The notes: generated from the sequence alone by a model not told the origin. Counted from the stretch's first letter, positions 1,501 to 55,666 are shown. The stretch is DNA of 64,000 bases from an uncultured virus (IMG/VR IMGVR_UViG_3300034378_000060) (IMGVR_UViG_3300034378_000060), one strand, 5' to 3'. A program made the numbers and translations.

Positions 1501-1935
1501 CTAACGAAAAATGAATTTCTGTGGGGGAGTCTTCTTGAAAGTTGGAAGACCAATAACTGCAATAATACATGATGTCACCCGTTTGACGTGTAAATCCATT
1601 TTGAAGGATTCTGCATTCACTAATTTGTTGCCCTTCACATACATCAATATTTTGTTCGGGTCGGTATTCATATGAATCTTTACTGGTTCTCCTGTTAATT
1701 CAACATCAACGAATTCATCTTTCCCTACTGGGATATGACGACCAGCATGCGAATTGATTTCAATCTCTTCTACAAACCCTTCAAAAACAAGTCCCTTATG
1801 AGTAGGGAGAACGCACTTTAAAAACGTGCGGGGAAATTGAGAAAATGCGGAATTAGCCGTAGGTTTGGGTTTAGGCTTTTTGCTTTGGGATGTCAAAGTG
1901 AGAAGCCCGTCCTTGCGATACGTATTGTCCGCCAA
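1501..1935 (-). CDS. Hypothetical protein, FxFR-tailed
   Basis: Ends QKFIFR-stop. Confidence 0.65.
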   Translation of the reverse strand: MADNTYRKDGLLTLTSQSKKPKPKPTANSAFSQFPRTFLKCVLPTHKGLVFEGFVEEIEINSHAGRHIPVGKDEFVDVELTGEPVKIHMNTDPNKILMYVKGNKLVNAESFKMDLHVKRVTSCIIAVIGLPTFKKTPPQKFIFR

Positions 1936-2686
1936 GTTCGTCCTTTACGATTCTGGCTATCTGGGCAAAATTTTCTCCGCCAAGATATTCTTTGATTTCG
2001 ACAACAAACATCGTTGCAGAGGCTTCTGTGTTTATCGCCAAGTTTCCGCTATCTATCCATTTCTTCAACTTTTGCTCAATCAATTCCTGTCTCGAAACGG
2101 GTTTAGAAGGTGTAGTCGCCTTCTCCTTTTTCTCCTTCTTCTCTACTGGTTTGGATGTTCCAAGTTTACCCACAGCAATCGTAAAGTGGGAATCTCTTCC
2201 AGCACTATGATACTCTCCACCCGCTTCTCTGATTATGGAAGCAATCTTGCCAAAGTCTTTATCAAGATATTGTCTCGGACTAACTTTGATTATGTCTCCC
2301 GTCTGTTCAAACAAAAGCAAGTCTTCAAGTTCTTTGGGAAACATCATTTTCAGATTAGTTACAGCATCACTATCTGCTGATGAAGGTGTACTGGTCTCTT
2401 TCTTGGCTATCGTCTTTTGTTCTGTCTTCTTTGGAGTCTCAACTTTCTTCTCAGGCTGTGGGTTTGGATTAGCCATTAGAAGTAGAAGTTGACCAAGTTT
2501 CTCGTCTATGCTCTTAAGTTTGAAAGCAGTATAAAGACCAATCTCGGTTGCCGATGGTTTCTTTTTCTGTTTTTTTGCTTGAGGGTCGTCCTCTGGTCTT
2601 GCGAAAGATGAGTGTGGTGGTGTTTCAGCATCTTCCTTCACAAAGTTTTCCTCAACTTTCTTGGTAATCTTTTCTTCTTCTGACAT
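1871..2686 (-). CDS. Hypothetical protein with an internally duplicated domain
   Basis: Two copies: QYLDKDFGKIASIIREAGGEYHSAGRDSHF and EYLGGENFAQIARIVKDELGGQYVSQGRASHF. Confidence 0.75.
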   Translation of the reverse strand: MSEEEKITKKVEENFVKEDAETPPHSSFARPEDDPQAKKQKKKPSATEIGLYTAFKLKSIDEKLGQLLLLMANPNPQPEKKVETPKKTEQKTIAKKETSTPSSADSDAVTNLKMMFPKELEDLLLFEQTGDIIKVSPRQYLDKDFGKIASIIREAGGEYHSAGRDSHFTIAVGKLGTSKPVEKKEKKEKATTPSKPVSRQELIEQKLKKWIDSGNLAINTEASATMFVVEIKEYLGGENFAQIARIVKDELGGQYVSQGRASHFDIPKQKA

Positions 2687-2721
2687 ACTCAGTCACTAAC
2701 AGAAATTGTATAACACCGAAG

Positions 2722-2738
2722 TATTTAAACCTTGCGGT
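2722..2738 (-). promoter_or_regulatory. Archaeal BRE-TATA promoter
   Basis: ACCGCAAGGTTTAAATA about 35 nt upstream of the ORF starting at 2686. Confidence 0.65.
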
Positions 2739-2952
2739 TTAGATTCTCAGCAAGTCGAATCTGGGCACAAATAAGCCATTCTTTAGCGGTTCGCCGTTGA
2801 ATGGAATATCTACCCATCAAGTCCAGTATCACAGTTGGATTGTACGGCTCATAAGGATTCTTTACAATCTTATCCTTCGTCTCTTTATGAAGGTCTGTTT
2901 CGAGAGCATGTAGAATCACATCAATATAATGCTCTCGGTCTTCATGTTGCAT
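2725..2952 (-). CDS. Hypothetical protein
   Basis: Abuts neighbouring genes in the same orientation. Confidence 0.55.
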   Translation of the reverse strand: MQHEDREHYIDVILHALETDLHKETKDKIVKNPYEPYNPTVILDLMGRYSIQRRTAKEWLICAQIRLAENLNRKV

Positions 2953-2958
2953 TGAAGG

Positions 2959-3882
2959 TCACTCTGGCTTAACATTCAACTTGTCTGTCTTATGCTTCAC
3001 CGTCAAGAATCGTTTCGGATTGATTATGTTTGGATATGTGAAGTGCCAAGGTCTAAGTCGTATCTGGTCATCAGCAAGCAATATTGCCCCACCGATGTCT
3101 GGTTGCCATTTAGCATACCATTTTACGGCTTTGTCGTATGGAACGTAGAATTGCCAGCATGGAAGAATCATATATCGAATTGTTGATTTATGAAGTTCCA
3201 TATATTCATGTCTGTGTGCCCTAATTATCATGTCAACTTTTGGAAGTTTCCCCATAGCGTGGGCTTGAAGGAATTGACCGATGTCTCTTCCGAGAACGGT
3301 CTCTGGATACACGGTTGCCCCTGTTGCGGGATGTGCAAGCCAAATGACTTTCTTGAACTTGCCATACTTCAATGTTATGTATGAGAATTCACCCATGTAT
3401 TTAGCAGTTATTCCGTATTTGCTTCCAAGTTTCTCAGCAATTGATTCTTCAATTGAAGTGTCTCTCGATGTGTGGTATGGTGTTCCACGGAATAGTAATA
3501 CTTTCTCAATTGATGGAACTTTCTTACAAACATAGTTAATCAAGAATGCACAAGCATCCTTCTGTGTTTCCAAGTCAACCATCATCATGTAGAGTCCTTG
3601 CTCTTTATAGTTCTTACCAGCGATAAGGTCTCCGAGAATAATCAGCGTGTTTATTTTACATTTGTTCAATTGGTCAATGTAGTCATTGAAGTAAGTCCAA
3701 AGGGTTTCTTGTCCACCGTTCAAAGCGATTGGTCGCTCATAACGGTCTGAGAAGTCTTTAGGGAAAAGACCATGTTCAGCCCCAACATGCAAATCTGATA
3801 TGAAACCTATCCTGAATGGATAGTCATGAGATAGCTTAAGTAGTTTACCGTTTAATACTAATTCGTCTTTCATTGCAATCAA
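2959..3882 (-). CDS. Calcineurin-like metallophosphoesterase
   Basis: SDLHVG, LGDL, GTPYH, AH and AHRH motifs. Confidence 0.8.
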   Translation of the reverse strand: MIAMKDELVLNGKLLKLSHDYPFRIGFISDLHVGAEHGLFPKDFSDRYERPIALNGGQETLWTYFNDYIDQLNKCKINTLIILGDLIAGKNYKEQGLYMMMVDLETQKDACAFLINYVCKKVPSIEKVLLFRGTPYHTSRDTSIEESIAEKLGSKYGITAKYMGEFSYITLKYGKFKKVIWLAHPATGATVYPETVLGRDIGQFLQAHAMGKLPKVDMIIRAHRHEYMELHKSTIRYMILPCWQFYVPYDKAVKWYAKWQPDIGGAILLADDQIRLRPWHFTYPNIINPKRFLTVKHKTDKLNVKPE

Positions 3883-3967: not shown

Positions 3968-4438
3968 TTACCGATATTTGTATGCAAAAATGAGTTTAGG
4001 CGTTCTTTTCACCCATTTTCTGTCGTGCCAAGACTTTCCACGGCGAGTTGTGCCAAAACCTTGGGTCATACCAATATATGTCCAGTTGTCAGCTTTGTAA
4101 ATTGCCCCTGTTCTCGGTGGTTTAACGAATGTCATCAGACCAACCAACTTTTCATCGTATTTCGCATCATAATCCCGCTTTATCTGTCTTCTGAATGATT
4201 TAAGCGTCATTGAAGCTAGATTTGGTTCTGGTCGGATAATTCTGAAAACTTCATTGTTCATTAATGTGCAAAGGGTGTCTGCTCTAGTCTCTTTTGTTAT
4301 ACCAAAGAAATTATCAATTGGTTTTACTGAGTATGGTGGACTGTTTGCCCCGATGATGCCTACCAGCCGTTGTTTGAAGATTACTAAGTAACATGAACTT
4401 CGCCCAACAATTCCAAGGCTCTCAGGATAGTGACTCAA
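3968..4438 (-). CDS. Mom-like (GNAT-fold) putative DNA modification protein
   Basis: GAIYKADNWTYIGMTQG matches the G-IY-A-NW-Y-G-T signature of Mom/DUF4338-like proteins. The frame stays open upstream to about 4558. Confidence 0.6.
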   Translation of the reverse strand: MSHYPESLGIVGRSSCYLVIFKQRLVGIIGANSPPYSVKPIDNFFGITKETRADTLCTLMNNEVFRIIRPEPNLASMTLKSFRRQIKRDYDAKYDEKLVGLMTFVKPPRTGAIYKADNWTYIGMTQGFGTTRRGKSWHDRKWVKRTPKLIFAYKYR

Positions 4439-4460: not shown

Positions 4461-4724
4461 TCACCTTTCGGAACACGAATTAAACATGGATATTTGAAGC
4501 TCTCTGGATAGAAATATGTTTGTTGAAGACGTTGTTTTAATACTGGATTCTGGGAGAGCTAACATTCCGCTGTGACCTTTCCCCCGTTCTTCTGCTACGT
4601 CCTCTGGATACTTGCCATATTTCTTGAAATAGCAATCTCGGCAATACCAAGTGCCCCAAATACGATAACGACCTTTCTCACCACAATGGTCGCAAATAGA
4701 TGTTCTTTTAGCTATGCTTGGCAT
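4461..4724 (-). CDS. Small Zn-finger protein
   Basis: CDHC...CRDC. Confidence 0.5.
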   Translation of the reverse strand: MPSIAKRTSICDHCGEKGRYRIWGTWYCRDCYFKKYGKYPEDVAEERGKGHSGMLALPESSIKTTSSTNIFLSRELQISMFNSCSER

Positions 4725-4870
4725 TAGCGAAACACAAACTCCGATAATCTTTTAGTGTTCTTCAACTCTTCGAGATATAATTCTGTGAATATCTTCCTAC
4801 AAGACTCACATGTGAACGTGCTTCTCACGAAATCTGGTTTTAATGGTTTACCGCATTCTGGACATCTCAT
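4724..4870 (-). CDS. Zn-ribbon micro-protein, FxFR-tailed (48 aa, below ORF-track cutoff)
   Basis: MRCPECGKPLKPDFVRSTFTCESCRKIFTELYLEELKNTKRLSEFVFR-stop, with ATGA and TAATG overlaps to its neighbours. Confidence 0.75.
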   Translation of the reverse strand: MRCPECGKPLKPDFVRSTFTCESCRKIFTELYLEELKNTKRLSEFVFR

Positions 4871-5055
4871 CTGAAGACGAACACCATCCTTGGTTTAAGA
4901 AAATCCTCTCCCTTCTTAACAAAAGCATAGAAAGTATCAAGCCATTCCTTGCAAAAAGTTACTGGATTCTTATGTTTTTCTGAACATGGTGTGCAATAAT
5001 ACAAGCCAGCATTCGCAGAATAATTGAGTTGATTGTGACACCATGGACATTTCAT
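4867..5055 (-). CDS. Zn-ribbon micro-protein, FxFR-tailed
   Basis: CPWC...CTPC. Ends MVFVFR. Confidence 0.75.
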   Translation of the reverse strand: MKCPWCHNQLNYSANAGLYYCTPCSEKHKNPVTFCKEWLDTFYAFVKKGEDFLKPRMVFVFR

Positions 5056-5420
5056 CGGAATACAAACTTCCCGTCAACTATAATGCAAGTCGTAATTTTG
5101 TTACATTTCACACACATAATTTTGTAGCGAGCTTTTGAGTCATACTCTCGCTTGTTTACAACCTTGGTTTGAAGTTGACCGCACTCTATACACTTAACGG
5201 TCACGAAATATTTAACGTTACTGGTCTTTTTCGACAAACTTCCCACGTCCTTTATATTTGCCACACTCACGGCGACTTTTCTTCTTCGAGAGCTTCCCTT
5301 CGATTTCTGCTTCTTCACGAAAGTCTTCATCTGGAAACATATCTGGTTCTTCGGCTTGCCAATCTTCATATTCTTTGTAGATTTTCGCTGAGAATTTTTT
5401 ATCATTCCATAGTTTATCAT
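5052..5420 (-). CDS. Zn-ribbon micro-protein, FxFR-tailed (true start probably near 5203)
   Basis: CIEC...CVKC. Ends GKFVFR. The N-terminal part overlaps ORF 5218..5514. Confidence 0.6.
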   Translation of the reverse strand: MINYGMIKNSQRKSTKNMKIGKPKNQICFQMKTFVKKQKSKGSSRRRKVAVSVANIKDVGSLSKKTSNVKYFVTVKCIECGQLQTKVVNKREYDSKARYKIMCVKCNKITTCIIVDGKFVFR

Positions 5421-5531: not shown

Positions 5532-5609
5532 TGGTGCGGACGGGGCGGATTCGAACCCCCGTTACCCGCTCGGCAAGCGGGCGTGCTAAACCACTAACAC
5601 TACGTCCGC
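5532..5609 (-). tRNA. tRNA-Gly(GCC), CCA encoded
   Basis: GCGGACG acceptor stem, CCCGC-TTGCCGA-GCGGG anticodon arm, GGTTCGAATCC T-loop and 3' ACCA. The T-stem has one extra G. Confidence 0.9.
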
Positions 5610-6349: not shown

Positions 6350-6538
6350 ATGGTATTTATATTGCTTAATGGTTTCCATCCATGCCCGCCAAGATTAGGG
6401 ATGATATTTCCTTATCCTTCTACATATGAGGATTACTATCGGTGGCTCTTTCACGCCAAGATGCTAAAACTAAGACGGCTGAGATGGAAGAAGCGTTACT
6501 TGCTCTGGAAAGCAATGAAAATTTTCGTGTTTCGCTAA
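6350..6538 (+). CDS. Hypothetical micro-protein, FxFR-tailed
   Basis: Ends KIFVFR. TTTAAATA lies upstream. Confidence 0.6.
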   Translation: MVFILLNGFHPCPPRLGMIFPYPSTYEDYYRWLFHAKMLKLRRLRWKKRYLLWKAMKIFVFR

Positions 6539-8279: not shown

Positions 8280-8738
8280 TTGAGTGAAAAATCTACTGTG
8301 GAGATTCTTAGTTGGCGTTATGACAACGAGAAAGACCGATTAGAACTTACTGCTAACATTGATGGTGAACAGAAGGAAATTGTACTTCCATTGACAGTCT
8401 TAGAAGAGATGTCTGAACTTGTGCCATCTTTCGAAGAAGAGAAGATAATCAACGAACTACTCAAAGGCATCAAAGAAGTCATACAGAAACGACATCTGGT
8501 AATCGAAGAACTTGACAAAGCATTAGATGACTTAAGGAAGGGACACGAAGAAGCACGAAAAGAACTGAAAGCAAAAGGCATTGATAAAATCGAAGTTCTG
8601 CAATGGAATGGCGTAATTAAGAGTTTAGCAGCCGAGAAGGTTGTTATTGCTGAGAAACGACATCTAATCAAGTTACTTCTTGCAGATGAAAGTGACCTAC
8701 GAGTTAGACTTGCGAAAATCCGTGCTGGTAGAAGGTAA
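8280..8738 (+). CDS. Helical hypothetical protein upstream of terminase (possible small subunit)
   Basis: TTG start inferred after the promoter CCGAAAGCCTTATATA. Function is from position only. Confidence 0.45.
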   Translation: MSEKSTVEILSWRYDNEKDRLELTANIDGEQKEIVLPLTVLEEMSELVPSFEEEKIINELLKGIKEVIQKRHLVIEELDKALDDLRKGHEEARKELKAKGIDKIEVLQWNGVIKSLAAEKVVIAEKRHLIKLLLADESDLRVRLAKIRAGRR

Positions 8739-8896
8739 TGTCCGTAAAAGCCAACTTGAGTCTGAAACTGTTATCCAGAACGATAATCTACGATGCAAAT
8801 GGTAAAGTGGTCAGCGATACCATAACTAACCATTTGAATGGAACAACAACTAAGACTCCGAAACGCAAAAAGAAAGAGGGATTCGTGTTTAGATAA
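8738..8896 (+). CDS. Micro-protein, FxFR-tailed (52 aa)
   Basis: MSVKANLSLKLLSRTIIYDANGKVVSDTITNHLNGTTTKTPKRKKKEGFVFR-stop, with TAATG overlaps at both ends. Confidence 0.75.
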   Translation: MSVKANLSLKLLSRTIIYDANGKVVSDTITNHLNGTTTKTPKRKKKEGFVFR

Positions 8897-10629
8897 TGCC
8901 ACGTAGAAAAGGAATCTTCAGCGAAGAGGAACGGCTTTGGGAAAAGTTCCAAGGCGACCCTAAAGATAGAGACCGTAAGGCAACTCATCGAAGATTCCGA
9001 GCGTGGAGACGAGAATGGAAACGAAGGGGTCCAGTAGAGTTTGCTGTCCATGTTTTGAAGATTGACCCAGAGACGGGAAAACCACTTCTATTATCAGATG
9101 ACCAGAGAGAATTTCTTTTAGACGTTACGGTTCGGGATATTTCTCTTGCAATTATCTCGGCTGGTCGTGGCTCTGGAAAAACATTCGTTCTTGCCATATA
9201 CATCATGTGGAGAATCTTCACCCATGACAAGTATCAAATGGCATGTATGGGTGGCTCAACCGAGCAATCTGACATCATTCAACAATACATGAGAGGCTGG
9301 AAACGAAACAGTCCAGATTTGAAGTCTTTTACGTGGAAAGACATTCAAGGCGAATATCGAACCTATGCTGAAAGTTCATGTAGGTTTGTTGCGTGTTCTC
9401 CAACAAGCACAAGAGGAAAACACGTTCGAGAAGTAATAATAGACGAACAGGCTGCTGGTGAAGAGGCTGGTGGCGAGAAGTATATTCGTGCATTCACTTG
9501 GCAAGCCTCAACAAGCGAAGATATTAAAGTTATCCGTTCATCAACACCACACTACGTTCATGGTGATTTCCTTAAAATCTGGAATGACTATCAAAAACTT
9601 GGTTATAAACGCTATCGTTGGGCGGTTGCTCGACATAAGAGCAAAGAAACAGACCCGTATATAATCTACGAAGACGCAAACCCATACAACTGGTTTAGCA
9701 ATGTCCCATGGTCAACTGACAAAACCATTCAAATGCTCAGACGTAACAAGAGCAATGAAGAGTGGCTATCTGAAGCACTTGGGGCGTTCAGTCGTGCATC
9801 TGGTCTCGTATTCAACCCATTAGACGTTGATTCCTGTATCTGTTCACGTTGTTTAGATGCTGGTCAATCATGTGAGCCATACAAAGAAGAACATTGCCCA
9901 GTTATCCAATATTTCATGCAACTTGAAGGACTTCCAGAGAAACAAATACCTTCCTCAACACGTAAAGCCTTACAGAAGGTTAAAGAGCGTGTTATGGGGA
10001 TAGATTGGGGACATGTTGCCCCAGATGCTTACTGTGTGGTAGGAAAGTTCAGAAAAACAGCATTCGTACTTCATCACATGGAAACAACTGGTCAGAACGA
10101 TGAGGAAAAGATTAAAGTTGCTGTTGAGTTTGGAAAAGAATGGGGAACAGAAATCCTTCGACCAGACCCACGAGAATGGGCTTACAATAACGAACTGGCA
10201 AACATAGGATTTGCAGTTCATGAACTATTCGCTTTTGAAGGTGGAAAGGAAAAGAAGGAATATATCCATATACTGAAAAAGTTCATCGAACGACATTTGC
10301 TGGTTATACCAGTCGCATTCGAAGACCTTATCAGAAGCCTAAAGAACCTTTCATATGATGACAAGGGACGAATCAGAAAGAAAGATGACCACTCATTTGA
10401 CTCGCTACTTTACGCTTTGTCATACTATGGTGAAGTCATGGATAACCCGCTTCTTAATTTACCAAAATCCAAACGGAAGGGAGTTACACTTTGGCAAAAT
10501 AAAGATATGAAGAAGCAACCAAAACCAAATCCAGAAGCAAGACGTGACTTCTTTGGTGACAAGAAGAAGAAAAAGAAGAAGAAAACTGAAGAGGATGACA
10601 ATCCTTGGAAGGGCGTTAAACTTTGGTGA
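8896..10629 (+). CDS. terL: Terminase large subunit
   Basis: Q motif (DQREF), Walker A GRGSGKT, Walker B IIDE, SSTP motif III, and RNase H-like GIDWG...DDHSFDSLLYA. Confidence 0.9.
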   Translation: MPRRKGIFSEEERLWEKFQGDPKDRDRKATHRRFRAWRREWKRRGPVEFAVHVLKIDPETGKPLLLSDDQREFLLDVTVRDISLAIISAGRGSGKTFVLAIYIMWRIFTHDKYQMACMGGSTEQSDIIQQYMRGWKRNSPDLKSFTWKDIQGEYRTYAESSCRFVACSPTSTRGKHVREVIIDEQAAGEEAGGEKYIRAFTWQASTSEDIKVIRSSTPHYVHGDFLKIWNDYQKLGYKRYRWAVARHKSKETDPYIIYEDANPYNWFSNVPWSTDKTIQMLRRNKSNEEWLSEALGAFSRASGLVFNPLDVDSCICSRCLDAGQSCEPYKEEHCPVIQYFMQLEGLPEKQIPSSTRKALQKVKERVMGIDWGHVAPDAYCVVGKFRKTAFVLHHMETTGQNDEEKIKVAVEFGKEWGTEILRPDPREWAYNNELANIGFAVHELFAFEGGKEKKEYIHILKKFIERHLLVIPVAFEDLIRSLKNLSYDDKGRIRKKDDHSFDSLLYALSYYGEVMDNPLLNLPKSKRKGVTLWQNKDMKKQPKPNPEARRDFFGDKKKKKKKKTEEDDNPWKGVKLW

Positions 10630-10823
10630 GGAAGAAGTGGGAAACCAAATGGTCAGTTTATCCACCGTGCTTACATCCAAAAGCCAAAGAATCAATTACC
10701 AAACTTACTTGTGGTCATGCTCGTTGCACTTACAAGAAATCTATTCCCTATCATGTAGTTTGCACAAAGAAGGGCAAATGCAAATGGAAGGGAGAACCAT
10801 CAACGGAGTTTCGATTTAGATGA
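10623..10823 (+). CDS. Cys/His-rich micro-protein, FxFR-tailed
   Basis: Ends TEFRFR. Confidence 0.65.
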   Translation: MVRKKWETKWSVYPPCLHPKAKESITKLTCGHARCTYKKSIPYHVVCTKKGKCKWKGEPSTEFRFR

Positions 10824-37882: not shown

Positions 37883-38092
37883 ATGACAAAACTTGAGGCT
37901 GGAACGCTCATAACGTTGAAGAAATCAACGAATCCGTATTGTCCATTGGATAGACGATACAAAGTCTTAAGCATTGATGAAGAGAAAGCCATAGTTCATA
38001 TCTGCTATGGTGGCTCTGGTTACACCACGGGAATAGATAACGTTAACAAAGTCTTCCAAGCAAGACCAAAAGTGGAGTTTGTCTTTCGATGA
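37883..38092 (+). CDS. SH3-like micro-protein, FxFR-tailed
   Basis: Ends VEFVFR. Confidence 0.7.
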   Translation: MTKLEAGTLITLKKSTNPYCPLDRRYKVLSIDEEKAIVHICYGGSGYTTGIDNVNKVFQARPKVEFVFR

Positions 38093-38265
38093 CAGCGATA
38101 ATAAGCAATGGAGAGAAAGGTTGTTGCGAGTGTTGCATGCATAGAGATTATTGCGACATGACAAAAGACAGTCTAATAAAAGAAACAAAAATCGTGAATG
38201 GTGTCATCTATGTTCCACATAACTGCTATATCTTGAAAGGTAAACAGGAGTTTGTCTTCAGATGA
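38089..38265 (+). CDS. Cys-rich micro-protein, FxFR-tailed (58 aa)
   Basis: MTAIISNGEKGCCECCMHRDYC...KGKQEFVFR-stop, with ATGA overlaps. Confidence 0.75.
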   Translation: MTAIISNGEKGCCECCMHRDYCDMTKDSLIKETKIVNGVIYVPHNCYILKGKQEFVFR

Positions 38266-38474
38266 AAATAGACAAAACGATTGAAGTCGGAGACTACGTT
38301 CAAATCATAGCCAGTAAGAGGAACGTGTTCAGCCCGAAGATTCGAGATGGTATTCTTAAAGTTCTTGCTGTGAAAGACCAGAAGATGACTCTTCTGGTTA
38401 AGACAGAGTTTTTCACGTTCGAAGCCCCAACTCACGTATTTGAAAAGGTAGATGATAAATTTGTCTTCCGTTAA
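38262..38474 (+). CDS. SH3/KOW-like micro-protein, FxFR-tailed
   Basis: IEVGDYV. Ends DKFVFR. Confidence 0.75.
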   Translation: MKIDKTIEVGDYVQIIASKRNVFSPKIRDGILKVLAVKDQKMTLLVKTEFFTFEAPTHVFEKVDDKFVFR

Positions 38475-38700
38475 AGGTTGCTATTGGTGTTCTTACCGCA
38501 ATGGTTTGAAGTGCAGACTCTCAGACCAAACAGACTTAGGGAATCTTCTTTCGAACATTAAGCGTCAGCCAATTGCAGAAAGCCTTAAGAATCCTCTCAC
38601 CATGGATGAAGTTGAGGGAAATCTTGAGAATGTTGACATGCATATAGGTGAAGAATGCATTCATAGAATCAACCATAAGGAGACGTTTGTGTTTCGATGA
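38452..38700 (+). CDS. Cys-rich micro-protein, FxFR-tailed
   Basis: Ends ETFVFR. Confidence 0.7.
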   Translation: MINLSSVKGCYWCSYRNGLKCRLSDQTDLGNLLSNIKRQPIAESLKNPLTMDEVEGNLENVDMHIGEECIHRINHKETFVFR

Positions 38701-38981
38701 GTCGAGTTAATCAACTGCTTAACACGGCAACAGACTTGGACGTTCCAATTTGTGACCGATGTTTATGCAAGAGAAACAGAAAAGTGAAGGCTTACAAACG
38801 TCTCAAATATGCAGAGCCAGCGAGTAAGCATAGGATAATGGCTCATATTTGTTATCCATGTTTTAGAGAATGGGAAGACGTATTCAAAGAGAAGTTTGGA
38901 ACTTACACCAAGAGTCATGATGCTGTTGCATTGGCTTTCTTAGAGTTTATCTTCGGCAAAGACCACTTCGTATTTAGGTGA
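38697..38981 (+). CDS. Zn-finger micro-protein, FxFR-tailed
   Basis: CDRC...CYPC. Ends DHFVFR. Confidence 0.75.
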   Translation: MSRVNQLLNTATDLDVPICDRCLCKRNRKVKAYKRLKYAEPASKHRIMAHICYPCFREWEDVFKEKFGTYTKSHDAVALAFLEFIFGKDHFVFR

Positions 38982-39784: not shown

Positions 39785-40600
39785 ATGAGTGAAGAACCAC
39801 AAGAATTAAATGCTGAGTTTCTGAAGAAACTCGATGAGATAATAGCGATGACTCTCGATGTAGGTCAGTTGATAGTCGTTGCATGCAAAGGTCACGGTAA
39901 GACAGTAGCAACCATGTGGCTTACCCGTAGAATGCTAGAGAACAAAGGCAACAGCAAGACAATAATCTTTGATACTTGTCTCAATTGGAGATACACCTTT
40001 GACAAAGTTCCTTACGTGGAACACGGTAGCATGCCTTATCTCCCAACTGTTCCAGAGATAATCTGTGACTTGAAATACGTTGACTCTGCTTTGACTCGAA
40101 TGGCTATCTCCGAGATTGTGATGAACGACTTTGTAAAAATGCAAAGTCTGAAGGAACAGTTCGAAGGTAAACTTCCATTCTTGAATATCTACGTGATAGA
40201 AGAGATGCAGAACGTTCTAGGAAGTTACTCTATGAATGGACAGCAAGGAAGATTCTGGCTGAAGGAAATCAGCGAAGGAAGAAACTTCGGACAAGTCTTT
40301 ATCGGTATCGGTCAACGTCTTGCAGACATTTCAACCAAAGTCGTAGAGAGAACCAGATACTACTTGTTTGGGGCAATGACGGGAGACAACGATATTCGCA
40401 AAGTCAGACGCATTGCTGGCAAAGAAGTGGCTGAGAAGTTGAAGACTCTGAACAAAGGTGAATTCCTTCTCTACGATAAGAAGAAGAGAAACATAGTCAC
40501 CATAATCGGATTCCCGATGTTCAAACAGAAGGACAAGCCTTACCCGTATCAGAATGAAGAAGCCAAAGGATTCGTGAAACAAGTCTTCGTGAGCGATTAG
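39785..40600 (+). CDS. P-loop ATPase (HerA/FtsK-like clade)
   Basis: ACKGHGKT, YVIEE and GRNFG...IGQR. Confidence 0.7.
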   Translation: MSEEPQELNAEFLKKLDEIIAMTLDVGQLIVVACKGHGKTVATMWLTRRMLENKGNSKTIIFDTCLNWRYTFDKVPYVEHGSMPYLPTVPEIICDLKYVDSALTRMAISEIVMNDFVKMQSLKEQFEGKLPFLNIYVIEEMQNVLGSYSMNGQQGRFWLKEISEGRNFGQVFIGIGQRLADISTKVVERTRYYLFGAMTGDNDIRKVRRIAGKEVAEKLKTLNKGEFLLYDKKKRNIVTIIGFPMFKQKDKPYPYQNEEAKGFVKQVFVSD

Positions 40601-40602: not shown

Positions 40603-40873
40603 TTGGCGAAAAAACCTTTCCCCTTAATTCCAGAGAAGATATTCGAAGCAGTATTCGAAGGGGCAAAAGGCTGGACTTCACCAATATCAACGTGAGTATC
40701 TTGCTGAGTTTGTCAAACCATCTGACTTAGAGAAGAAACCGAAGAAGAAACCATTTAAAGGGGCAATCATTTACGGGGGAAGGGGAGTAGGCAAAACCTT
40801 TCTTGCCAATGCTCTACGTCAAGCACTTGAGAATTATGGTAAAGAAGAGGATAAATGCTTTGTATTCCGATAG
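40603..40873 (+). pseudogene. Frameshifted ORF with an isolated Walker A, FxFR-tailed
   Basis: TTG start MAKKPFPLIPEKIFEAVFEGAK, then the +1 frame reads AGLHQYQREYLAEF...IYGGRGVGKTFL...DKCFVFR-stop. Confidence 0.5.
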
Positions 40874-41281: not shown

Positions 41282-41548
41282 CTATTTGCCACTACCGAAG
41301 TAGCGAGCAATAGTTACGATGTCAAAGATGTTTATGCGTTTGTCATGATTGAAGTCGAGCCGTGGATGGTATCTTGGATGTCCTTTGTAAGAGCCGTAAG
41401 CCCTTGCAACGATAATAATGTCTCTAATGTCAACCTTACCATCGTGGTTCAAGTCATACCTTCGCCATCTTGAACAGGCAAAGGCTGGGAAGACTACCAT
41501 CGCTATTGCAATGATAGCCATCAATGCAATAAGAACTATTCTCTTCAT
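41282..41548 (-). CDS. Secreted stand-alone dockerin-like protein
   Basis: Signal peptide, then DLNHDGKVDIRD...DFNHDKRINIFD duplicated Ca-loop. Confidence 0.8.
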   Translation of the reverse strand: MKRIVLIALMAIIAIAMVVFPAFACSRWRRYDLNHDGKVDIRDIIIVARAYGSYKGHPRYHPRLDFNHDKRINIFDIVTIARYFGSGK

Positions 41549-43592: not shown

Positions 43593-43958
43593 TTACTCCA
43601 CTACCTTCATCACTTTGGCTATGAATTCATCCTTTGTTAGTTTTCCTTTTTGCATCTCTTCATGGAATATCTTTATCATGACCAACTTGGTTAACCAGAC
43701 TTTATGTGTCTCATTAGCCTTGTTTGAAATGATGTGGAAGTTAAGTTTGTTCGCTATTCGATTCAGAACCACGAACTTACAAAAACTAAAGTGATGCCAT
43801 TCCTTTGCTTTCTTTTCCAGATATTCTTCGTAACTCTGACAGTTCGATGCATAAGCACAACGCTTGCAAATCTTCTTAGGTTTTACCGTGCCACCAATCG
43901 GACATTCTATCTGTCCTTTCGGAGTCTCACGGGCTGTGATTCTAATATGAGCCGTCAT
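43593..43958 (-). CDS. Hypothetical Cys-rich protein
   Basis: CP...CKRC...C. Confidence 0.5.
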   Translation of the reverse strand: MTAHIRITARETPKGQIECPIGGTVKPKKICKRCAYASNCQSYEEYLEKKAKEWHHFSFCKFVVLNRIANKLNFHIISNKANETHKVWLTKLVMIKIFHEEMQKGKLTKDEFIAKVMKVVE

Positions 43959-44941
43959 TGTTTAGGTCTCACAAATCCTTGTTTGGTAATTTCGATTTCG
44001 AAGTGGAGACGCTGGAAGTTACACAACCGACAGCCCATGACACGGATGAAGTTCACCCATGCCCCTTGCTTCAGTTGATGGTCTTTGTCTCTATGTAAGT
44101 TCAAATCCAGTTTCATCTGGCTTCCCCAGACTTTGCCGTGGTCTAAACAGATTGTAATGTCGAGATTGTGAGCCAATCCGATACCGCCAGCCATTGCATA
44201 CTTGTTCACATCTTCGATGGCTCGCTGGCACACGTAGAAAGCAGTTATACCGTGAAGTTGGTTGTATCGAGCAAGTTCCATAAGCCTAAACTTCAAAGCC
44301 CCACGGTAACTTTCCATGAGTGTAATCGAGTCAACTATGAGAAGGTCTATTCCTTTCTCAGCCTCTACCAGATAGCGGTAAGCATCAACAAACGTGTTCC
44401 AATCTCTGAATTCTGCATGTGTGATTGTGTCGAACACGAAAAGGTTTTGCTTGATTGTCTCCCAATTCAAACCCATAATGTCAGCCTTTTCCTTCATTCT
44501 TGATTGAAGGTCAAAACGTGGAGTTGGAGACTCCCAGATGTCTTCGCTTGTGACGAATAGAACTTTCTGTCCACCAGATGCCACACGCAAAGCAATTTCT
44601 TGCACGAGAACGCTTTTACCAGAGTCGGGCAATCCTACGATACCGATTTGACCGACCATTGGAACGCCATTAAGCACTTCATCGTCTTGCTTCAAGAATA
44701 ACCTGTCCAGAAGTGTGCCAGTAACAAAGACTTCGGTTTCCAGTTTCTTCACCGAGTCTGATGGTTTGCTGACTAATTCGCTAAGTCGTTCATCGTCTTT
44801 CTGCTTCTCAGTTTTGAATGGTTTGTTAGCAAGTTGCCAAGCGTCTGTGTTTTGAGCATCATTGAGAATCGAGTTAAGCGATTGCTTAAGTATTTTTGCA
44901 ACGGCTTGAATGTTAACGTCCTTCTCTTCCTTTTCGTCCAT
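43955..44941 (-). CDS. KaiC-like RecA-superfamily ATPase (single domain)
   Basis: TG..LD...GVP, GLPDSGKS, FVTSE, IVDSIT and AGG...H..D. Confidence 0.8.
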   Translation of the reverse strand: MDEKEEKDVNIQAVAKILKQSLNSILNDAQNTDAWQLANKPFKTEKQKDDERLSELVSKPSDSVKKLETEVFVTGTLLDRLFLKQDDEVLNGVPMVGQIGIVGLPDSGKSVLVQEIALRVASGGQKVLFVTSEDIWESPTPRFDLQSRMKEKADIMGLNWETIKQNLFVFDTITHAEFRDWNTFVDAYRYLVEAEKGIDLLIVDSITLMESYRGALKFRLMELARYNQLHGITAFYVCQRAIEDVNKYAMAGGIGLAHNLDITICLDHGKVWGSQMKLDLNLHRDKDHQLKQGAWVNFIRVMGCRLCNFQRLHFEIEITKQGFVRPKQ

Positions 44942-46213: not shown

Positions 46214-46438
46214 TCATCGAAATACGAACCTTTCTTGGTAAATAAGCCAGCCTCTTGTTATATCCCACATAAAAATCACCTCATCTAAGAACATGAAGAA
46301 CTTCTGACAAACGTCACACTTGAAATATATCTTGTTGGCAAACTTTTCGTCTCCCCTCTTCTTAGGCTTAAAGTTAGTCTCATAAGGCATCATTTCTTTG
46401 TCACATATCGGACACTTTTCCTTCCTATACCAAGTCAT
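46214..46438 (-). CDS. Zn-ribbon micro-protein, FxFR-tailed
   Basis: CPIC...CDVC. Ends ERFVFR. Confidence 0.75.
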   Translation of the reverse strand: MTWYRKEKCPICDKEMMPYETNFKPKKRGDEKFANKIYFKCDVCQKFFMFLDEVIFMWDITRGWLIYQERFVFR

Positions 46439-46442: not shown

Positions 46443-46595
46443 TCACCTGAATACGAATTGTTTTTGTTCTGCTTCCGCTTGTTCATGAATTCGTTTCCAG
46501 CCAAAGTATATATGACAACTTGGGCATAGATAGGTTGCACTTTTTGGTTCTGGCGTTAACGGTTTTCCACAATCTGGACAGATATAACCACTCAT
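46443..46595 (-). CDS. Zn-ribbon micro-protein, FxFR-tailed (50 aa)
   Basis: MSGYICPDCGKPLTPEPKSATYLCPSCHIYFGWKRIHEQAEAEQKQFVFR-stop. Confidence 0.75.
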   Translation of the reverse strand: MSGYICPDCGKPLTPEPKSATYLCPSCHIYFGWKRIHEQAEAEQKQFVFR

Positions 46596-46599: not shown

Positions 46600-46860
46600 T
46601 CACCTGAAAATAAAGGTCATTTCGCATCGGTAAGCATCCCACCGTTCGCCAGAGTTTCTATACCAGAGTCGTTCTTTGTGATAGAAATATCGTTTTCCAC
46701 ACGCTTCACATTTATGGAAGGTCGTATCAACAACATCATTGATTTGAGGAAGGTCTTCCAGTTTGATTTTAATATTGCCTAAGATTACCCGTTGTTTTCC
46801 ACAGAATGCACAGACATGAAACAGAGAATACGGGTCAGGCGAAGGATATATTTGTTTCAT
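46600..46860 (-). CDS. Zn-ribbon micro-protein, FxFR-tailed
   Basis: CAFC...CEAC. Ends MTFIFR. Confidence 0.75.
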   Translation of the reverse strand: MKQIYPSPDPYSLFHVCAFCGKQRVILGNIKIKLEDLPQINDVVDTTFHKCEACGKRYFYHKERLWYRNSGERWDAYRCEMTFIFR

Positions 46861-47060
46861 CTAAACACAAACTTCTTGTCTTTGAGTAGGTCGGTTATGG
46901 GATATTCGTCTTTGTGATGGCATTGTGGACAGCGAGTTAATACCTTCGCTTGATTAACCCATGCTGGCAAATTTAGCTCATGCAGTCGTGGCTTTATGAC
47001 AACGATGAATTTCGTTCCGCACTTCTTACAGGTCACTTCACAGTCAGTCAATACTATCAC
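46857..47060 (-). CDS. Zn-ribbon micro-protein, FxFR-tailed
   Basis: CKKC...CPQC. Ends KKFVFR. Confidence 0.75.
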   Translation of the reverse strand: MIVLTDCEVTCKKCGTKFIVVIKPRLHELNLPAWVNQAKVLTRCPQCHHKDEYPITDLLKDKKFVFR

Positions 47061-47272
47061 CTAAACAGAAATGTGTTATCTTTCTCTCTTCCTTCTTCGC
47101 TGGGTTGTTTTAGTGCCCCTTTAAACAGGTTTTTCCACAGTTCAGCAAGTATATCTTTGGCTTCTTCAGCAACCCTTGGGTCTTCAGACTTTGTTCTTTC
47201 TCTCAAGTCTCTTATCATGTCACTATAACTATTATATTCCTTCTCTTCTGCTTTGGTTGCCATCATTATCAC
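47057..47272 (-). CDS. Helical micro-protein, FxFR-tailed
   Basis: Ends NTFLFR. Confidence 0.7.
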   Translation of the reverse strand: MIMMATKAEEKEYNSYSDMIRDLRERTKSEDPRVAEEAKDILAELWKNLFKGALKQPSEEGREKDNTFLFR

Positions 47273-47682
47273 CTAAAAACGAACGTCTCCTTTGCTGGTG
47301 GTTCTACGGCTTTGTCACCTATAATGAAGTCTGTTGCCTTCAGGATTATCTCTTCAAGTTTTCCATCGTTAACTACATCTACGACTTGGGCGTTTTTTAC
47401 AGCCATTGGCACTATCGGTGGGGCGTTGTTGAGTTTCACTTGGAAATACAGGTTAACGAAGACTCCTTGAGGAATTGGAGATTGAGCCACCTTTAGGTCT
47501 CGATACAACGTTGCCGTTACTGCTATTATTGGTTTGCCTTGATGTCCTCTCATTATTGAATGTCCTTGAGTTTCTACATTTACTTCATAAAGTCCTATCC
47601 CATGTCTCAACCCTTTGATAACCTTGCCAGTAGGAAGAACAATCTCTAATGAATCATTATCGAACGTGTAGCGTTGAGACAT
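47269..47682 (-). CDS. Hypothetical protein, FxFR-tailed
   Basis: Ends ETFVFR. Promoter and palindrome (47730) lie upstream. Confidence 0.7.
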   Translation of the reverse strand: MSQRYTFDNDSLEIVLPTGKVIKGLRHGIGLYEVNVETQGHSIMRGHQGKPIIAVTATLYRDLKVAQSPIPQGVFVNLYFQVKLNNAPPIVPMAVKNAQVVDVVNDGKLEEIILKATDFIIGDKAVEPPAKETFVFR

Positions 47683-49377: not shown

Positions 49378-49986
49378 TTATGGCTTATTTAACATAAAAA
49401 ATGCGAATGACACAGCCTCTTTCACGTTTATTGTGGCTGGTAACGAGCGATACTCGAAGCCATATGGTTTGATTTCGTATTCGCCACACACCCTTTCCGA
49501 GCCAGCAATCTCACGATTGAATCTAGCGTCCATACCCAACACGATAGTTCGAATTGGAAGTTGCACTCTTCGTCCATGTATGTCACGTTTGCTGAAGTGA
49601 ATGTGGATACCAGCAGTTCCAAACTCGGAATCTATGCCAGTTGCATGTGTCTTTGAAACCGTGCTGTAAATATTAGCCGTTAGGTCTGGTAGCGTATCCC
49701 AATGATATTTCTTGCTTAAGCAGTTGATTAAGTTTTTCCCCAAAAATCGGCGGTGTTGTAGTGTGAGTCTTAGTCCGAGAGACTTCGCTTGGGCTTTATG
49801 AGCTAACGTTAAACGGTTTAGTTCATTAAGTAAACCTTTTGCGGTTGGGTGAGCATGCGTTCGAATCTCCACGAGAAAGCCAAACTCATCAATTGGAAAG
49901 CCGTAGTCATCTGGCATAACAATCTGGTTCTTCTTATCTAATAACCAGAATTCTCTCTCCAACCCTATTCTATTCAATACTATCAC
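49378..49986 (-). CDS. COOH-NH2 ligase-like protein (glutamate-cysteine ligase fold)
   Basis: GLEREF, LVEIRT, AGIHIHFS and KPYGFEYRSLP. Confidence 0.7.
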   Translation of the reverse strand: MIVLNRIGLEREFWLLDKKNQIVMPDDYGFPIDEFGFLVEIRTHAHPTAKGLLNELNRLTLAHKAQAKSLGLRLTLQHRRFLGKNLINCLSKKYHWDTLPDLTANIYSTVSKTHATGIDSEFGTAGIHIHFSKRDIHGRRVQLPIRTIVLGMDARFNREIAGSERVCGEYEIKPYGFEYRSLPATINVKEAVSFAFFMLNKP

Positions 49987-50072
49987 CTGAACACAAAGAC
50001 ATAAGGTTCATAATCACGCTCATATATAAATGTTTCGGTCTCTAATTCGAAACAATTAGGACAATGATGCAT
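49983..50072 (-). CDS. FxFR-tailed micro-ORF, or the frameshifted tail of 50042..50461
   Basis: MHHCPNCFELETETFIYERDYEPYVFVFR-stop. Confidence 0.5.
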   Translation of the reverse strand: MHHCPNCFELETETFIYERDYEPYVFVFR

Positions 50073-53935: not shown

Positions 53936-53990
53936 TTTAATCGGACTCTAACTCTCAGCACGGCTTATAAGGCTTTCGCTGATTTTGCCA

Positions 53991-54209
53991 TTATTTTCTT
54001 CGCCGTCTCTTCCGCTCGACTCGAATTAGCCTTCCGATGTTTGCACATTTCTTCTCGTAGTTTCGGCGGTTGCGAACCCTTGGCACTTTGCTTTTTCTGA
54101 AGTTATTCTGTGGCAAGCCCTTCTTGGATTTACGAGTCTGGTTAGACCACTTTTTCGGTTGAAGACTTCGGGTTTTACCCGCTTTACTTAAACTTCCATG
54201 TGTTGGCAT
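53991..54209 (-). CDS. rps30e: Ribosomal protein eS30 (S30e)
   Basis: MPTHGSLSKAGK.RS..PK...KVPRVRNRRNYEKK. Confidence 0.85.
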   Translation of the reverse strand: MPTHGSLSKAGKTRSLQPKKWSNQTRKSKKGLPQNNFRKSKVPRVRNRRNYEKKCANIGRLIRVERKRRRRK

Positions 54210-54659
54210 TTAGGACACCTTCTTGAATACGTCTCGGATTTCTCCACCAATATCTGGTATGAATTTGAAGTTGTCTATCTGTTCTTCAGTTATCCACTTA
54301 TAGTCTTGGCTCTCAGTCAACTCTATCGCTATCTCATCAGCATTCTTGTCAAGAACAACGTAGTAACTCAACACTAAACGGTTGATTGCCCCAGCATATA
54401 TCGAACAGAGATACTTCAACTCGCTAACATATGTGTGGATTCCAGTTTCTTCCTTTAGTTCTCGAACAGCACATACTTCAGCGGAGAAGTAACGAAAGTC
54501 TTCTGAGACAAGTATGCCATCGGTATCGCTGATTTTTCCACCAGCCACAGTCCACAAGTTAGGAAATGTTCCATCGCTTGCTCTCTGAACTATAAGAGCC
54601 TTCTTGTCTTTGGATATGACAATTATGGTTGAACTGACCTTCAAAGATTCTAAGTCCAT
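54210..54659 (-). CDS. Nudix hydrolase
   Basis: AGGK...AVRELKEETGI Nudix box. Confidence 0.9.
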   Translation of the reverse strand: MDLESLKVSSTIIVISKDKKALIVQRASDGTFPNLWTVAGGKISDTDGILVSEDFRYFSAEVCAVRELKEETGIHTYVSELKYLCSIYAGAINRLVLSYYVVLDKNADEIAIELTESQDYKWITEEQIDNFKFIPDIGGEIRDVFKKVS

Positions 54660-55052
54660 TTAATCTCTCTCCATTTTCTGTTTTGCGAATTCATTCGCTT
54701 GACGAAAAGCCTCATCCCAACCCAACTCGTAAACGCTAAAGGTTTTAAGTTGAACTGGCTCATTGTTATTTTCGTAATCCCTTCTACGTGAAACTTCAAT
54801 GTAGTGAAACTTTGGATAGCCACCACACCAGCACGGTCTTCCCCAATGAGGTTGAACTATGATGTCAATTTCCTCTTCGTAATTGGAATACATGAAATAG
54901 CCTTCTTTTACTCCACCATCTTCCAACTCCCAGCCTTCAGGCAACGGCTTGATTTCTACTGGTATATAAGTCTTTTGTTTCTCTTCGAATTCTTTGCCTT
55001 CGTCCGTCTTCTTCCATTCGTTGTAACCTTTAAGCATTGCTTCAAAGCTCAT
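54660..55052 (-). CDS. Hypothetical protein
   Basis: Co-oriented operon. Confidence 0.55.
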   Translation of the reverse strand: MSFEAMLKGYNEWKKTDEGKEFEEKQKTYIPVEIKPLPEGWELEDGGVKEGYFMYSNYEEEIDIIVQPHWGRPCWCGGYPKFHYIEVSRRRDYENNNEPVQLKTFSVYELGWDEAFRQANEFAKQKMERD

Positions 55053-55058
55053 TCATTA

Positions 55059-55331
55059 TCACCTAAATTGGAAGTCCTCTTTTTTAGGTGGAAACTTGTG
55101 AGGCTTTAATTCTCGGATTATGAGAAACTGTATCTGTTTACACCAGACGGCTTGAAGGATTTCTATCTCGTATTTCCAAGTCTTGTCTGAGCCAATCTTG
55201 AAATTAGCAACCATCTTCCATTCTTCGCCACCAATCAACGTAGTGAGCTTGAGGAAGTAGGTCTTCAATCGGCTTTTAAGGTTCGGATAACGATACTCGT
55301 GCCAAATACATTCACGCATCAACATCATCAC
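55059..55331 (-). CDS. Hypothetical protein, FxFR-tailed
   Basis: Ends PPKKEDFQFR. Confidence 0.7.
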   Translation of the reverse strand: MMMLMRECIWHEYRYPNLKSRLKTYFLKLTTLIGGEEWKMVANFKIGSDKTWKYEIEILQAVWCKQIQFLIIRELKPHKFPPKKEDFQFR

Positions 55332-55666
55332 CTGAATTGAAACTCTTCTGGTTTTGGTTTGCCTACCAGCATCTTCTCTAATGCTTCAGCCAACTTGATT
55401 ACCTTTGGGTCTAAGTTGTGAATCTCAATCTCGTCTGAACCTAATGTCTCATCGTCCAATACGAATTCTATTACGTCAGAAGAAAAGAATCGGCGATTTT
55501 TCACTCGATATTTCATATCGCAAGAACCATACTGATATGTTTCTACATGAAATCCGTGACTTTTAATGATGTCGGTGACTTGCTTTCGGCGTTTCAGTAA
55601 TGCACGTTTCTTCTGAAGTTGCTCTTTTACCTTGAGTTTCTGGTCGGCAACGGTAGTCATTATCAC
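55328..55666 (-). CDS. Hypothetical protein, FxFR-tailed
   Basis: Ends PKPEEFQFR. Confidence 0.7.
   Translation of the reverse strand: MIMTTVADQKLKVKEQLQKKRALLKRRKQVTDIIKSHGFHVETYQYGSCDMKYRVKNRRFFSSDVIEFVLDDETLGSDEIEIHNLDPKVIKLAEALEKMLVGKPKPEEFQFR

Follow-up and report, generated by a model that had tools for sequence, protein, structure and literature searches.

Background

The nearest published counterpart of the system described here is found in the vWA-MoxR peptide-processing systems, in which small, fast-diverging proteins carry a conserved C-terminal peptide (FxSxx-COOH, RxD or acidic), as the excerpted text of their description has it (PMC7159879). In this work, we analyze an uncultured virus (IMG/VR IMGVR_UViG_3300034378_000060) in which 27 reading frames with largely unrelated bodies share the C-terminal ending F-x-F-R. 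The sequence used is a stretch of 64,000 nucleotides, called the window throughout. It is part of a 94,493-bp metagenomic contig, about 30 kb of which lie outside the window. According to the same excerpts, the cellular loci are bacterial (actinobacterial) and of an immune type, and the peptide genes adjoin those of a MoxR ATPase, a vWA protein and a zincin-like (HExxH) metallopeptidase. They have a single precursor or a few, a peptidase encoded by a gene of its own, in the FxSxx type a radical-SAM/SPASM enzyme, and AP-ATPase/TPR effectors (PMC7159879). As in the excerpted account, the viral carriers are small and diverging (79 proteins in 64 clusters), their tails are invariant, and they lie beside MoxR and vWA genes. 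They differ from it in the motif (FxFR), in the number of carriers (27–37 per genome) and in the fusion of the HExxH motif to the vWA protein. Pfam scans of the window and of 92 proteins from a complete related virus, G003, returned no radical SAM family, and the NCBIfam cut-off was reached by none of the 25 tagged proteins scanned. Because the motif differs, NCBIfam gives no match, no radical SAM partner was found and the carriers are counted in dozens, the viral tags do not belong to the published family.

Pairs of a MoxR AAA+ ATPase and a vWA protein include CbbQ-CbbO, NorQ-NorD, RavA-ViaA, CobS-CobT and BchI-BchD. The metal site of the vWA partner probably serves to hold the client, and each known pair is devoted to a single one, such as Rubisco, NOR or a chelatase. 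We know of no description of a library of dozens of tagged clients for such a pair. Like these pairs, the window encodes an AAA_5 ATPase together with a vWA protein bearing a MIDAS (an adhesion site that depends on a metal ion). A different kind of likeness is offered by the poxviral ankyrin proteins. These combine many variable bodies with a C-terminal PRANC/F-box, a folded domain of about 40 residues that docks onto the host SCF. The viral proteins also join variable bodies to one C-terminal docking element; their tag differs in being only 4–7 residues long. In a full-text literature search, no paper describing such viral tags was found. The shared viral tail looks like an apparently undescribed docking label, for which the sequence offers only a candidate reader.

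Occurrence and Terminal Position of the Tag

Among the 4846 stop-to-stop frames of the window (six-frame script), 27 end with F-x-F-R. Their stops lie at exactly the 27 coordinates listed in the earlier note, and about 0.3 such endings would be expected by chance. The tails are FVFR (18), FIFR (4), FQFR (2), FMFR (1), FLFR (1) and FRFR (1). When the search was limited to open reading frames (ORFs) of at least 30 amino acids with an ATG, GTG or TTG start, 25 of 678 carried the tail. The remaining two are a 29-residue ORF at 49983–50072 and the frame 40628–40873, which lacks a usable start. Genes were called heuristically, with the longest ORFs picked greedily. In this rough call, 26 of 108 small predicted ORFs (no longer than 150 amino acids) are tagged, which is up to about a quarter.

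The enrichment over a shuffled null, which had been proposed as a check, is clear. In 200 mononucleotide shuffles, the mean number of F-x-F-R tails was 0.27 and the maximum was 2; a second set (n = 50) gave a mean of 0.28 and the same maximum. The expectation based on composition is 0.4–0.9 for the window. The motif is also bound to the chain end, with 27 of the 44 F.FR matches found anywhere in 1456 six-frame segments being terminal. The residue before the last Phe is V, I, L or M in 24 tails and R or Q in three. A four-residue ending on so many small ORFs is a very strong constraint for which no reader has been described.

Two further genes can be mentioned beside these. The 69-residue ORF at 27980–28189 (minus strand) ends with FLFR plus one extra Ser, a near-terminal version of the motif. 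A DruA/Mom-like protein (3968–4438, minus strand; PF14236, E 2e-14) ends with YKYR, possibly an aromatic-x-aromatic-Arg variant of the tag. Its gene neighbors the tagged genes at 4724–5420, and its product and that of the next gene (4461–4724) both match a single 273-residue ORF in the related virus G002.

Codon Use and Overlap with Translation Signals

The tag is conserved as amino acids and not as DNA. The four tail codons read TTY, NTN, TTY and MGN, with TTT and TTC used 15 and 12 times at the first Phe and 18 and 9 times at the second. Valine is encoded by GTG (7), GTC (5), GTA (5) and GTT (1), arginine by AGG (12), AGA (5), CGA (5), CGT (3) and CGC (2), and the stops are TGA (21), TAA (4) and TAG (2). 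The use of both Phe codons, five Arg codons and all three stops, as previously noted, therefore agrees with our counts. No DNA conservation was seen upstream of the tail codons when the 27 window tails were compared. Since third positions vary, it is the peptide and not the DNA that is conserved.

The synonymous choices are nevertheless not neutral. AGG makes up 44% of the Arg codons in tails and 7% genome-wide. This excess arises because AGG TGA spells the Shine-Dalgarno sequence (AGGTGA) of the next gene. Of the tagged genes, 23 of 27 lie directly against the gene downstream of them; AGGTGA occurs in 12 tails, and NGATGA overlaps the following start in eight. In G002, whose tag is of another type, the tail DNA reads AAG GTG ATN YTN ATA TGA and combines the coding sequence with a Shine-Dalgarno sequence, a 6-nt spacer and an overlapping ATG. 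GTG accounts for 32 of 37 tail Val codons there, compared with 15% genome-wide. Dual coding is therefore general in this virus group: the tail codons also serve as the ribosome-binding site of the next gene. Here, a protein signal and a translation signal plainly share the same codons.

These same features would be expected if the tail had no peptide function and was a by-product of a gene-junction cassette (U-rich tract, Shine-Dalgarno sequence, overlapping start) spreading by recombination between packed genes. The close packing, the AGG excess and the composite G002 sequence all speak for such a cassette. However, neither Phe site varies in any of the 27 window tails or the 16 tails of G003, and other pyrimidine-rich codons (Leu, Ser, Pro) do not appear there. 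Third positions vary, and the Leu of the G002 tail uses all six codons, with the last residue remaining hydrophobic. Four genes that are not coupled to a downstream gene (stops 1501, 6538, 40873 and 46214) keep the tail and use CGN codons for Arg. In G003, many tails end with AGA TAA, so that the Shine-Dalgarno sequence follows the stop. Moreover, 48 untagged genes are coupled to the next gene just as tightly (heuristic gene call), and their endings are diverse; coupling therefore does not need the tag. From the tails kept in uncoupled genes and the diverse endings at untagged junctions, it follows that the amino acids are selected and that the codons additionally serve translation of the next gene. 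Finally, a homologue with only 32% identity, P0106, retains FVFR. A tail produced by the junction alone is thus extremely unlikely. The proposal that selection acts on the peptide and on its free C-terminus is supported by the synonymous variation, the terminal anchoring and the ending of P0106.

Bodies and Linkers of the Tagged Proteins

The tagged library is made up of small accessory proteins that evolve fast, and about half of them are Zn ribbons. At least two CxxC pairs are present in 12 of 26 carriers in the window, in 12 of 16 in G003 and in 19 of 37 in G002. The bodies had been described as unrelated, and this largely holds, with one BLAST pair (46443/4724, E < 1e-3) among 26 proteins. 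It does not hold for that pair or for the proteins at 1501 and 47269, for which P0106 provides a link.

The tag is usually found behind a linker rich in Pro, Lys and Glu. The three residues amount to 40% of the ten positions preceding the tail and to 22% in the bodies, in agreement with the linker noticed before. In the AlphaFold2 (AF2) model of the protein encoded at 38697–38981, the body has a predicted local distance difference test (pLDDT) score of 62–90, and the last five residues have scores below 50 and no secondary structure. Family scans of the window proteins recognized no structural or replication protein with the tail, as the earlier note had stated.

The Virus, Its Relatives and Their Tag Versions

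The window encodes a terminase (8896–10629), a family B DNA polymerase (24326–26758), a KaiC/RadA-like ATPase (43955–44941) and a trypsin-like protease (60084–60944). Among GenBank phages, tblastn gave no match for the capsid candidate or for the terminase large subunit (TerL), and only distant matches for the polymerase (PolB). Closer relatives are represented by terminase proteins with identities of 90%, 66% and 62%. The complete relative G003 encodes MCM, Rad51/RadA and an archaeal-type LonB interrupted by inteins, and related virus contigs have been binned with a 1.3-Mb “uncultured archaeon”, G001. Because of this gene set and this binning, the virus and its relatives are treated as archaeal. 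On these sequence grounds, the window is treated as part of a tailed virus in a clade of uncultured archaeal tailed viruses.

Tags were compared across five genomes, namely the window, G002, G003, G004 and G005, with [KR]VxL[IVLY] as the pattern counted in G002 and [VI]xFT as that counted in G005. G003 (93.7 kb, terminal repeats; TerL 53% identical to that of the window) has 16 FxFR tails against a shuffle mean of 0.48, and 15 of the 16 surround its vWA gene at 69.7–83 kb. G002 (112 kb, terminal repeats; TerL also 53% to the window) has no FxFR tail. Instead, 37 of its proteins end with K-[VI]-[KR]-V-x-L-[IVLY], compared with 0.52 by chance. In G005 (58.9 kb, 71% complete; TerL 34%), five proteins end with [KT]-[VI]-x-F-T, compared with 0.52 by chance, and four of the five genes are consecutive and directly 3' of the vWA gene. 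G004 (79 kb, complete; TerL 34%) has no tag. One small gene on a contig of the archaeal bin G001, near MoxR and vWA genes, ends with KIIFT. In all versions of the tag, the fourth and second positions from the end are hydrophobic; the last residue but one is Phe in every tail of the window (27) and of G003 (16), and Leu in all 37 tails of G002. The tag is therefore lineage-specific (FxFR, K-V-x-L-I or [VI]-x-F-T).

Seen from the terminase region alone, the tag would seem to be absent from relatives. No FxFR tail occurs in 73 loci (L001–L073) covering about 10 kb on either side of TerL in related viruses, and tblastn of 26 tagged proteins against such loci gave one weak match only. The full G003 record, the same record as L002, contradicts this with its 16 tails elsewhere in the genome. 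The absence from the TerL loci is misleading because they span only about 10 kb to each side.

Homologous bodies can bear different tags. Without their tails, the tagged proteins of the window (26), G003 (16) and G002 (37), 79 in all, formed 64 BLAST clusters, four of which mix members with FxFR and KVxLI endings. One alignment (A4) represents a Zn-binding family (CDRC...C..C..W...F..F) in which one window and three G003 members end with FVFR and five G002 members end with KVKV-x-LI. In another (A6; GCYWCS...), the endings are ETFVFR (window), ETVIFT (G005) and KVEVLLV (G002). The tag has thus been swapped on homologous bodies, and such swaps provide natural specificity pairs (FVFR, KVKVILI, KVIFT). 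The only distant homologue of the 47269–47682 protein among 1.84 billion representatives is P0106, which is 32% identical and ends with PFVFR. A search with profile A2 found P0106 only, besides two proteins apparently from the window's own contig, and a homologue search with the 10623–10823 protein gave no candidate.

Several observations concern the archaeal bin. The pattern TTYNNNTTYMGNTRA has 75 matches in G001 compared with 45 for a control pattern, but these counts carry no information, since Ser codons fit the pattern too and G001 has not been established as the host. The genomes listed from the phylum of G001 (n = 21) measure 0.3–2 Mb, which hints at a small-genome (DPANN-like) host group, with the caveat that the binning could be wrong. 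The window has a tRNA-Gly(GCC) gene at 5532–5609 (minus strand; ARAGORN and Rfam) that has no match in G001.

The MoxR-vWA Module and Its Link to the Tag

Three conserved genes on the plus strand form the best candidate for a reader of the tag. The first encodes a MoxR-type AAA+ ATPase (33173–34039; AAA_5, PF07728, E 6.5e-10; phrog_249, E 1.3e-24) with a weak likeness to CobS. The second (34056–34721) encodes a conserved 221-residue protein of no known family, for which a PDB sequence search gave no match. The third gene (35378–37075), in the same direction and 1.3 kb downstream of MoxR, encodes a 565-residue protein with an N-terminal region containing an invariant HExxH and a C-terminal vWA domain (PF00092) with a complete MIDAS. 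The domain matches integrin I-domains. In all four vWA homologues, PF00092 is matched, the MIDAS residues D404, S406, S408, T470 and D499 (DxSxS, T, D) are invariant, and H85-E86-x-x-H89 is kept. For this protein, the atlas lists one “Peptidase (Fragment)” cluster at 0.93.

Every tagged genome (the window, G003, G002 and G005) has the MoxR, 221-residue and vWA genes, and the untagged complete G004 has none of them. Identities to the window proteins are 64% (G003), 59% (G002) and 61% (G005) for MoxR, 57%, 57% and 47% for the 221-residue protein, and 48%, 47% and 47% for the vWA protein. Three other genes show the same presence pattern, being found in the tagged genomes only and not in G004: a metallophosphatase (2959–3882), an 86-residue protein (24066–24326) and a 121-residue ORF (26811–27176). 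The genes are also close to one another. Directly behind the vWA gene, the window has an unbroken run of ten tagged genes, and one more is located within the operon. G003 has two tagged genes after the module and two inside it, and G005 has four after it, so that tagged genes adjoin the module in three of the four tagged genomes.

In their core genes, G005 and G004 are close (TerL 69%, protease 74%, others 47–68%), and the TerL proteins of both are only 33–37% identical to those of the window, G002 and G003. Yet the G005 MoxR (61–70%) and vWA protein (45–58%) are as close to those of the window, G002 and G003 as these three are to each other. Because G005 is distant in core genes and close in MoxR and vWA, we conclude that the module moved between virus clades. 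A vWA profile run over 371 genomes of the phylum of G001 matched G001 alone.

Other candidates were considered and ruled out. The COOH-NH2 ligase-like protein at 49378–49986 is absent from tagged G003 and present in untagged G004, and the same is true of the trypsin-like protease (60084–60944), for which the tail would have mimicked an Arg-ended product. The ligase-like gene itself (minus strand, 202 residues) resembles the phiEco32 type (atlas 0.97; weak phrog_3815) and comes after a tagged mini-gene. Homologues are present in G002 and G004 and absent from G003.

One small family is found near the same genes. Proteins with the pattern KIEIFV...FGG.T...G.W.N..G.IE.D are encoded on the minus strand in the window (29308–29682), in L078 (7299–7736) and in L097 (8604–8996). 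The family has no family match. It occurs in the window, G003 and G005, where the second residue from the tag end is Phe, and is absent from G002 and G004. In each genome, its gene is located within a few kb of the MoxR-vWA and tag region.

A Probable Docking Tag and Its Candidate Reader

The F-x-F-R ending is very probably a real peptide tag with one common reader. Because tags and module co-occur and co-locate, the tail is read as a docking tag, probably for the module. Taken separately, the claim that the reader is the viral MoxR-vWA module has, in our judgment, a somewhat less than even chance of being right. The mechanism would be as follows. The tail would act as a short strand ending in the free C-terminus, with the fourth-from-last and second-from-last residues as hydrophobic anchors, and would plug the mini-proteins into one shared reader, for which the MoxR, 221-residue and vWA/HExxH proteins are the best candidate. 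In the vWA domain, the MIDAS metal would take the free carboxylate as a ligand, with the side chains of the two anchors seated in adjoining pockets. In a next step, the tagged protein or its cargo would be remodeled or cut by the ATPase or the HExxH region. A precedent for the first step is known, as the excerpted source reports that the C-terminal carboxylate of C3b binds the MIDAS of the factor B vWA domain (PMC11130238). The carboxylate-MIDAS magnesium chemistry of that pair is the one proposed for the viral tag. The precedent differs in belonging to vertebrate complement, with one ligand and, in the excerpted text, no tag common to many proteins (PMC11130238).

More tentatively still, and with considerable doubt, one virus machine might accept 30–40 interchangeable mini-adaptors through a carboxylate-anchored tag of 4–7 residues, with tag and machine diverging and moving together between lineages. 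Such a plug-in arrangement, if true, would amount to a programmable hub for host takeover or counter-defense, and viruses would have their own equivalent of the cellular vWA-MoxR peptide systems. If the module is the reader, this would assign a role to a gene pair of phages and viruses that is widespread and poorly understood. It would also open dozens of orphan mini-proteins, of which half are Zn ribbons, to testing as adaptors or clients of one machine.

A number of points weigh against the module as reader. The co-occurrence has little statistical power because only five genomes were compared (four tagged and one untagged), and one of the tagged genomes, G005, is 71% complete. For G005, the [VI]xFT tag was chosen after inspection of the data and rests on five genes, and all gene calls come from the heuristic, greedy longest-ORF procedure. 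In G002, the nearest tagged gene is about 3.5 kb from the module. The vWA protein of the window is 48% identical to that of G003, which has the same tag, and 47% identical to that of G002, which has a different one; no covariation of tag and reader is visible at five-genome depth. MoxR-vWA pairs resembling CobS/CobT look widespread in phages, beyond the five genomes compared for tags. The HExxH region has no match to a peptidase family, and its AF2 model is unreliable (pLDDT 50.6). A predicted complex of the vWA protein (A3) with Mg and the 46443–46595 protein speaks neither for nor against the module, with scores of 0.41, 0.42 and 0.40, compared with 0.38 for an unrelated-chain control. Furthermore, the window covers 64 of 94.5 kb, and other candidate readers may lie outside it.

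Readers other than a viral module should also be considered, and the most obvious is a host machine. The tail could mimic the HbYX motif at the alpha ring of the 20S proteasome, compete with PAN or Cdc48, or dock onto any host hub, with tags that differ by host. The HbYX motif of PAN, Cdc48 and the Rpt subunits consists of a hydrophobic residue, Tyr and any residue, and plugs into ring pockets; its penultimate Tyr is required for gate opening. The viral tail is likewise terminal and has a mostly hydrophobic third-from-last residue (V, I, L or M in 24 of 27), an aromatic one and then any residue. The virus appears to be archaeal, G003 encodes MCM, Rad51/RadA and LonB, and the archaeal bin G001, with which related virus contigs were grouped, has proteasome subunits and Cdc48. 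The tag type does not follow the core genes: the PolB of the window is 52% identical to that of G002 and 44% to that of G003, with which it shares the tag, and host switching could explain this mismatch. However, HbYX motifs are carried by hexameric ATPases and not by small proteins, and the penultimate viral residue is always Phe or, in G002, Leu, and never Tyr. HbYX makes no use of the fourth position from the end, where the viral tails have a strictly conserved anchor. R and Q are tolerated directly before the last Phe in the window, and K, E and P at the corresponding position in G002. The Cdc48 of G001 ends with KYVG, unlike any tag. Docking onto a host machine is for these reasons unlikely, and the HbYX mimic suggested in the earlier note is not supported.

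A C-terminal degron that times the destruction of early accessory proteins by a viral LonB-type or host protease is a further option. Proteases classically recognize hydrophobic C-terminal tails as signals (ssrA for ClpXP, FtsH, Tsp), the carriers are small accessory genes and not structural or replication genes, and a LonB-like AAA+ protease is encoded in G002, G003 (with inteins), G004 and G005. Nevertheless, LonB is present in the untagged G004 and was not found within the 64-kb window (of the 94.5-kb contig), and three different tags in close relatives are hard to square with one core protease. This makes the degron rather improbable. Finally, the tail might direct the loading of mini-proteins into the capsid or some other assembly of the virus, as an address label comparable to the cargo-loading peptides of encapsulins and the internal proteins of T4. 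A short terminal tag behind a flexible linker would suit this role, and two tagged genes (8738–8896 and 10623–10823) flank the terminase. Still, the tags do not track the capsid and terminase lineage, with G005 and G004 being 47–74% identical in core genes and only G005 tagged, and 27 to 37 cargo species would be very many. We regard virion loading as very unlikely. What stands of the modular docking idea in the earlier note is the variable body with a common tail, as seen in the synonymous variation, P0106, the tail swaps, the terminal anchoring and the linkers; its HbYX/proteasome version is not supported. Of the other candidates named there, a viral hub protein fits best, in the form of the MoxR-vWA pair listed there for modeling, the only module that tracks the tags across the five genomes; the trypsin-like protease does not track them.

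Tagged Genes of the Window

Unless indicated otherwise, the following genes were located by ORF calling together with the tail scan. At the left end of the window, the minus strand carries a 144-residue FIFR protein (1501–1935), linked via P0106 as a paralogue of the 47269–47682 product, followed by Zn-ribbon proteins of 48 (4724–4870) and 62 residues (4867–5055) and a 122-residue protein (5052–5420), all three with FVFR. On the plus strand, a 62-residue FVFR ORF (6350–6538) has no coupled downstream gene. The stop of a 52-residue FVFR protein (8738–8896) overlaps the terminase start, and a 66-residue FRFR protein (10623–10823) is encoded directly 3' of the terminase.

The largest group belongs to the MoxR-vWA region on the plus strand. 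A 76-residue FVFR protein (34732–34962) is encoded within the operon. The run of ten tagged genes after the vWA gene starts with three Zn-ribbon proteins of 50 (37072–37224, FMFR), 62 (37243–37431, FVFR) and 63 residues (37439–37630, FIFR). It continues with an 82-residue protein in which a (PEPK)n linker precedes FIFR (37627–37875) and with FVFR proteins of 69 (37883–38092), 58 (38089–38265) and 70 residues (38262–38474). Further FVFR proteins have 82 residues (38452–38700), with homologue tails TVIFT in G005 and VEVLLV in G002, and 94 residues (38697–38981), whose family has the three FVFR members of G003 and the five KVKVxLI members of G002 mentioned above.

A separate case is the stop-to-stop frame of 81 codons at 40628–40873 (plus strand), which contains a Walker A motif (GGRGVGKT), ends with FVFR and has no ATG, GTG or TTG start giving at least 30 residues. 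It is in the +1 frame relative to the preceding 30-residue ORF (40603–40695). The FVFR stop follows 25 residues after the Walker A motif. The best matches of the frame are weak and concern the Walker A regions of terminases (E 0.03–0.3), and the gene just upstream of 40603 (39785–40600) has a weak PHROG match to the C-terminal region of terminases. Judging from the sequence, 40603–40873 may be a decayed or frameshifted second terminase-like gene with an acquired tag.

The remaining carriers are encoded on the minus strand. A cluster of six comprises Zn-ribbon proteins of 74 (46214–46438, not coupled downstream), 50 (46443–46595) and 67 residues (46857–47060), all with FVFR, an 86-residue FIFR protein (46600–46860), a helical 71-residue FLFR protein (47057–47272) and the 137-residue FVFR protein (47269–47682) whose homologue P0106 was described above. 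The 29-residue FVFR mini-ORF (49983–50072) was found by the tail scan. Two FQFR proteins of 90 (55059–55331) and 112 residues (55328–55666) complete the set.

Other Genes of the Window and of G003

An 88-residue protein (41282–41548, minus strand) has a dockerin/EF-hand-like calcium-binding motif (PF00404, E 7e-8). A sigma-70 promoter scan found 15 sites, compared with 15.0 expected. In G003, the LonB-type protease is a 1701-residue archaeal-type protein (L075, 11060–16165, minus strand) with inteins carrying LAGLIDADG domains, and its gene lies beside that of the MCM helicase. Other G003 genes also have LAGLIDADG inserts. Sugar-related genes occur in two places in the window. At 61166–63844 (minus strand), a sugar-modifying cluster encodes a hexapeptide acyltransferase, an NAD-dependent epimerase, a sulfotransferase and a GNAT protein, and at 19098–20515, genes for a glycosyltransferase and a carbohydrate-binding module (CBM) are found beside that of a 1599-residue tail-region protein. 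These clusters could possibly serve the glycan decoration of the particle or of the host.

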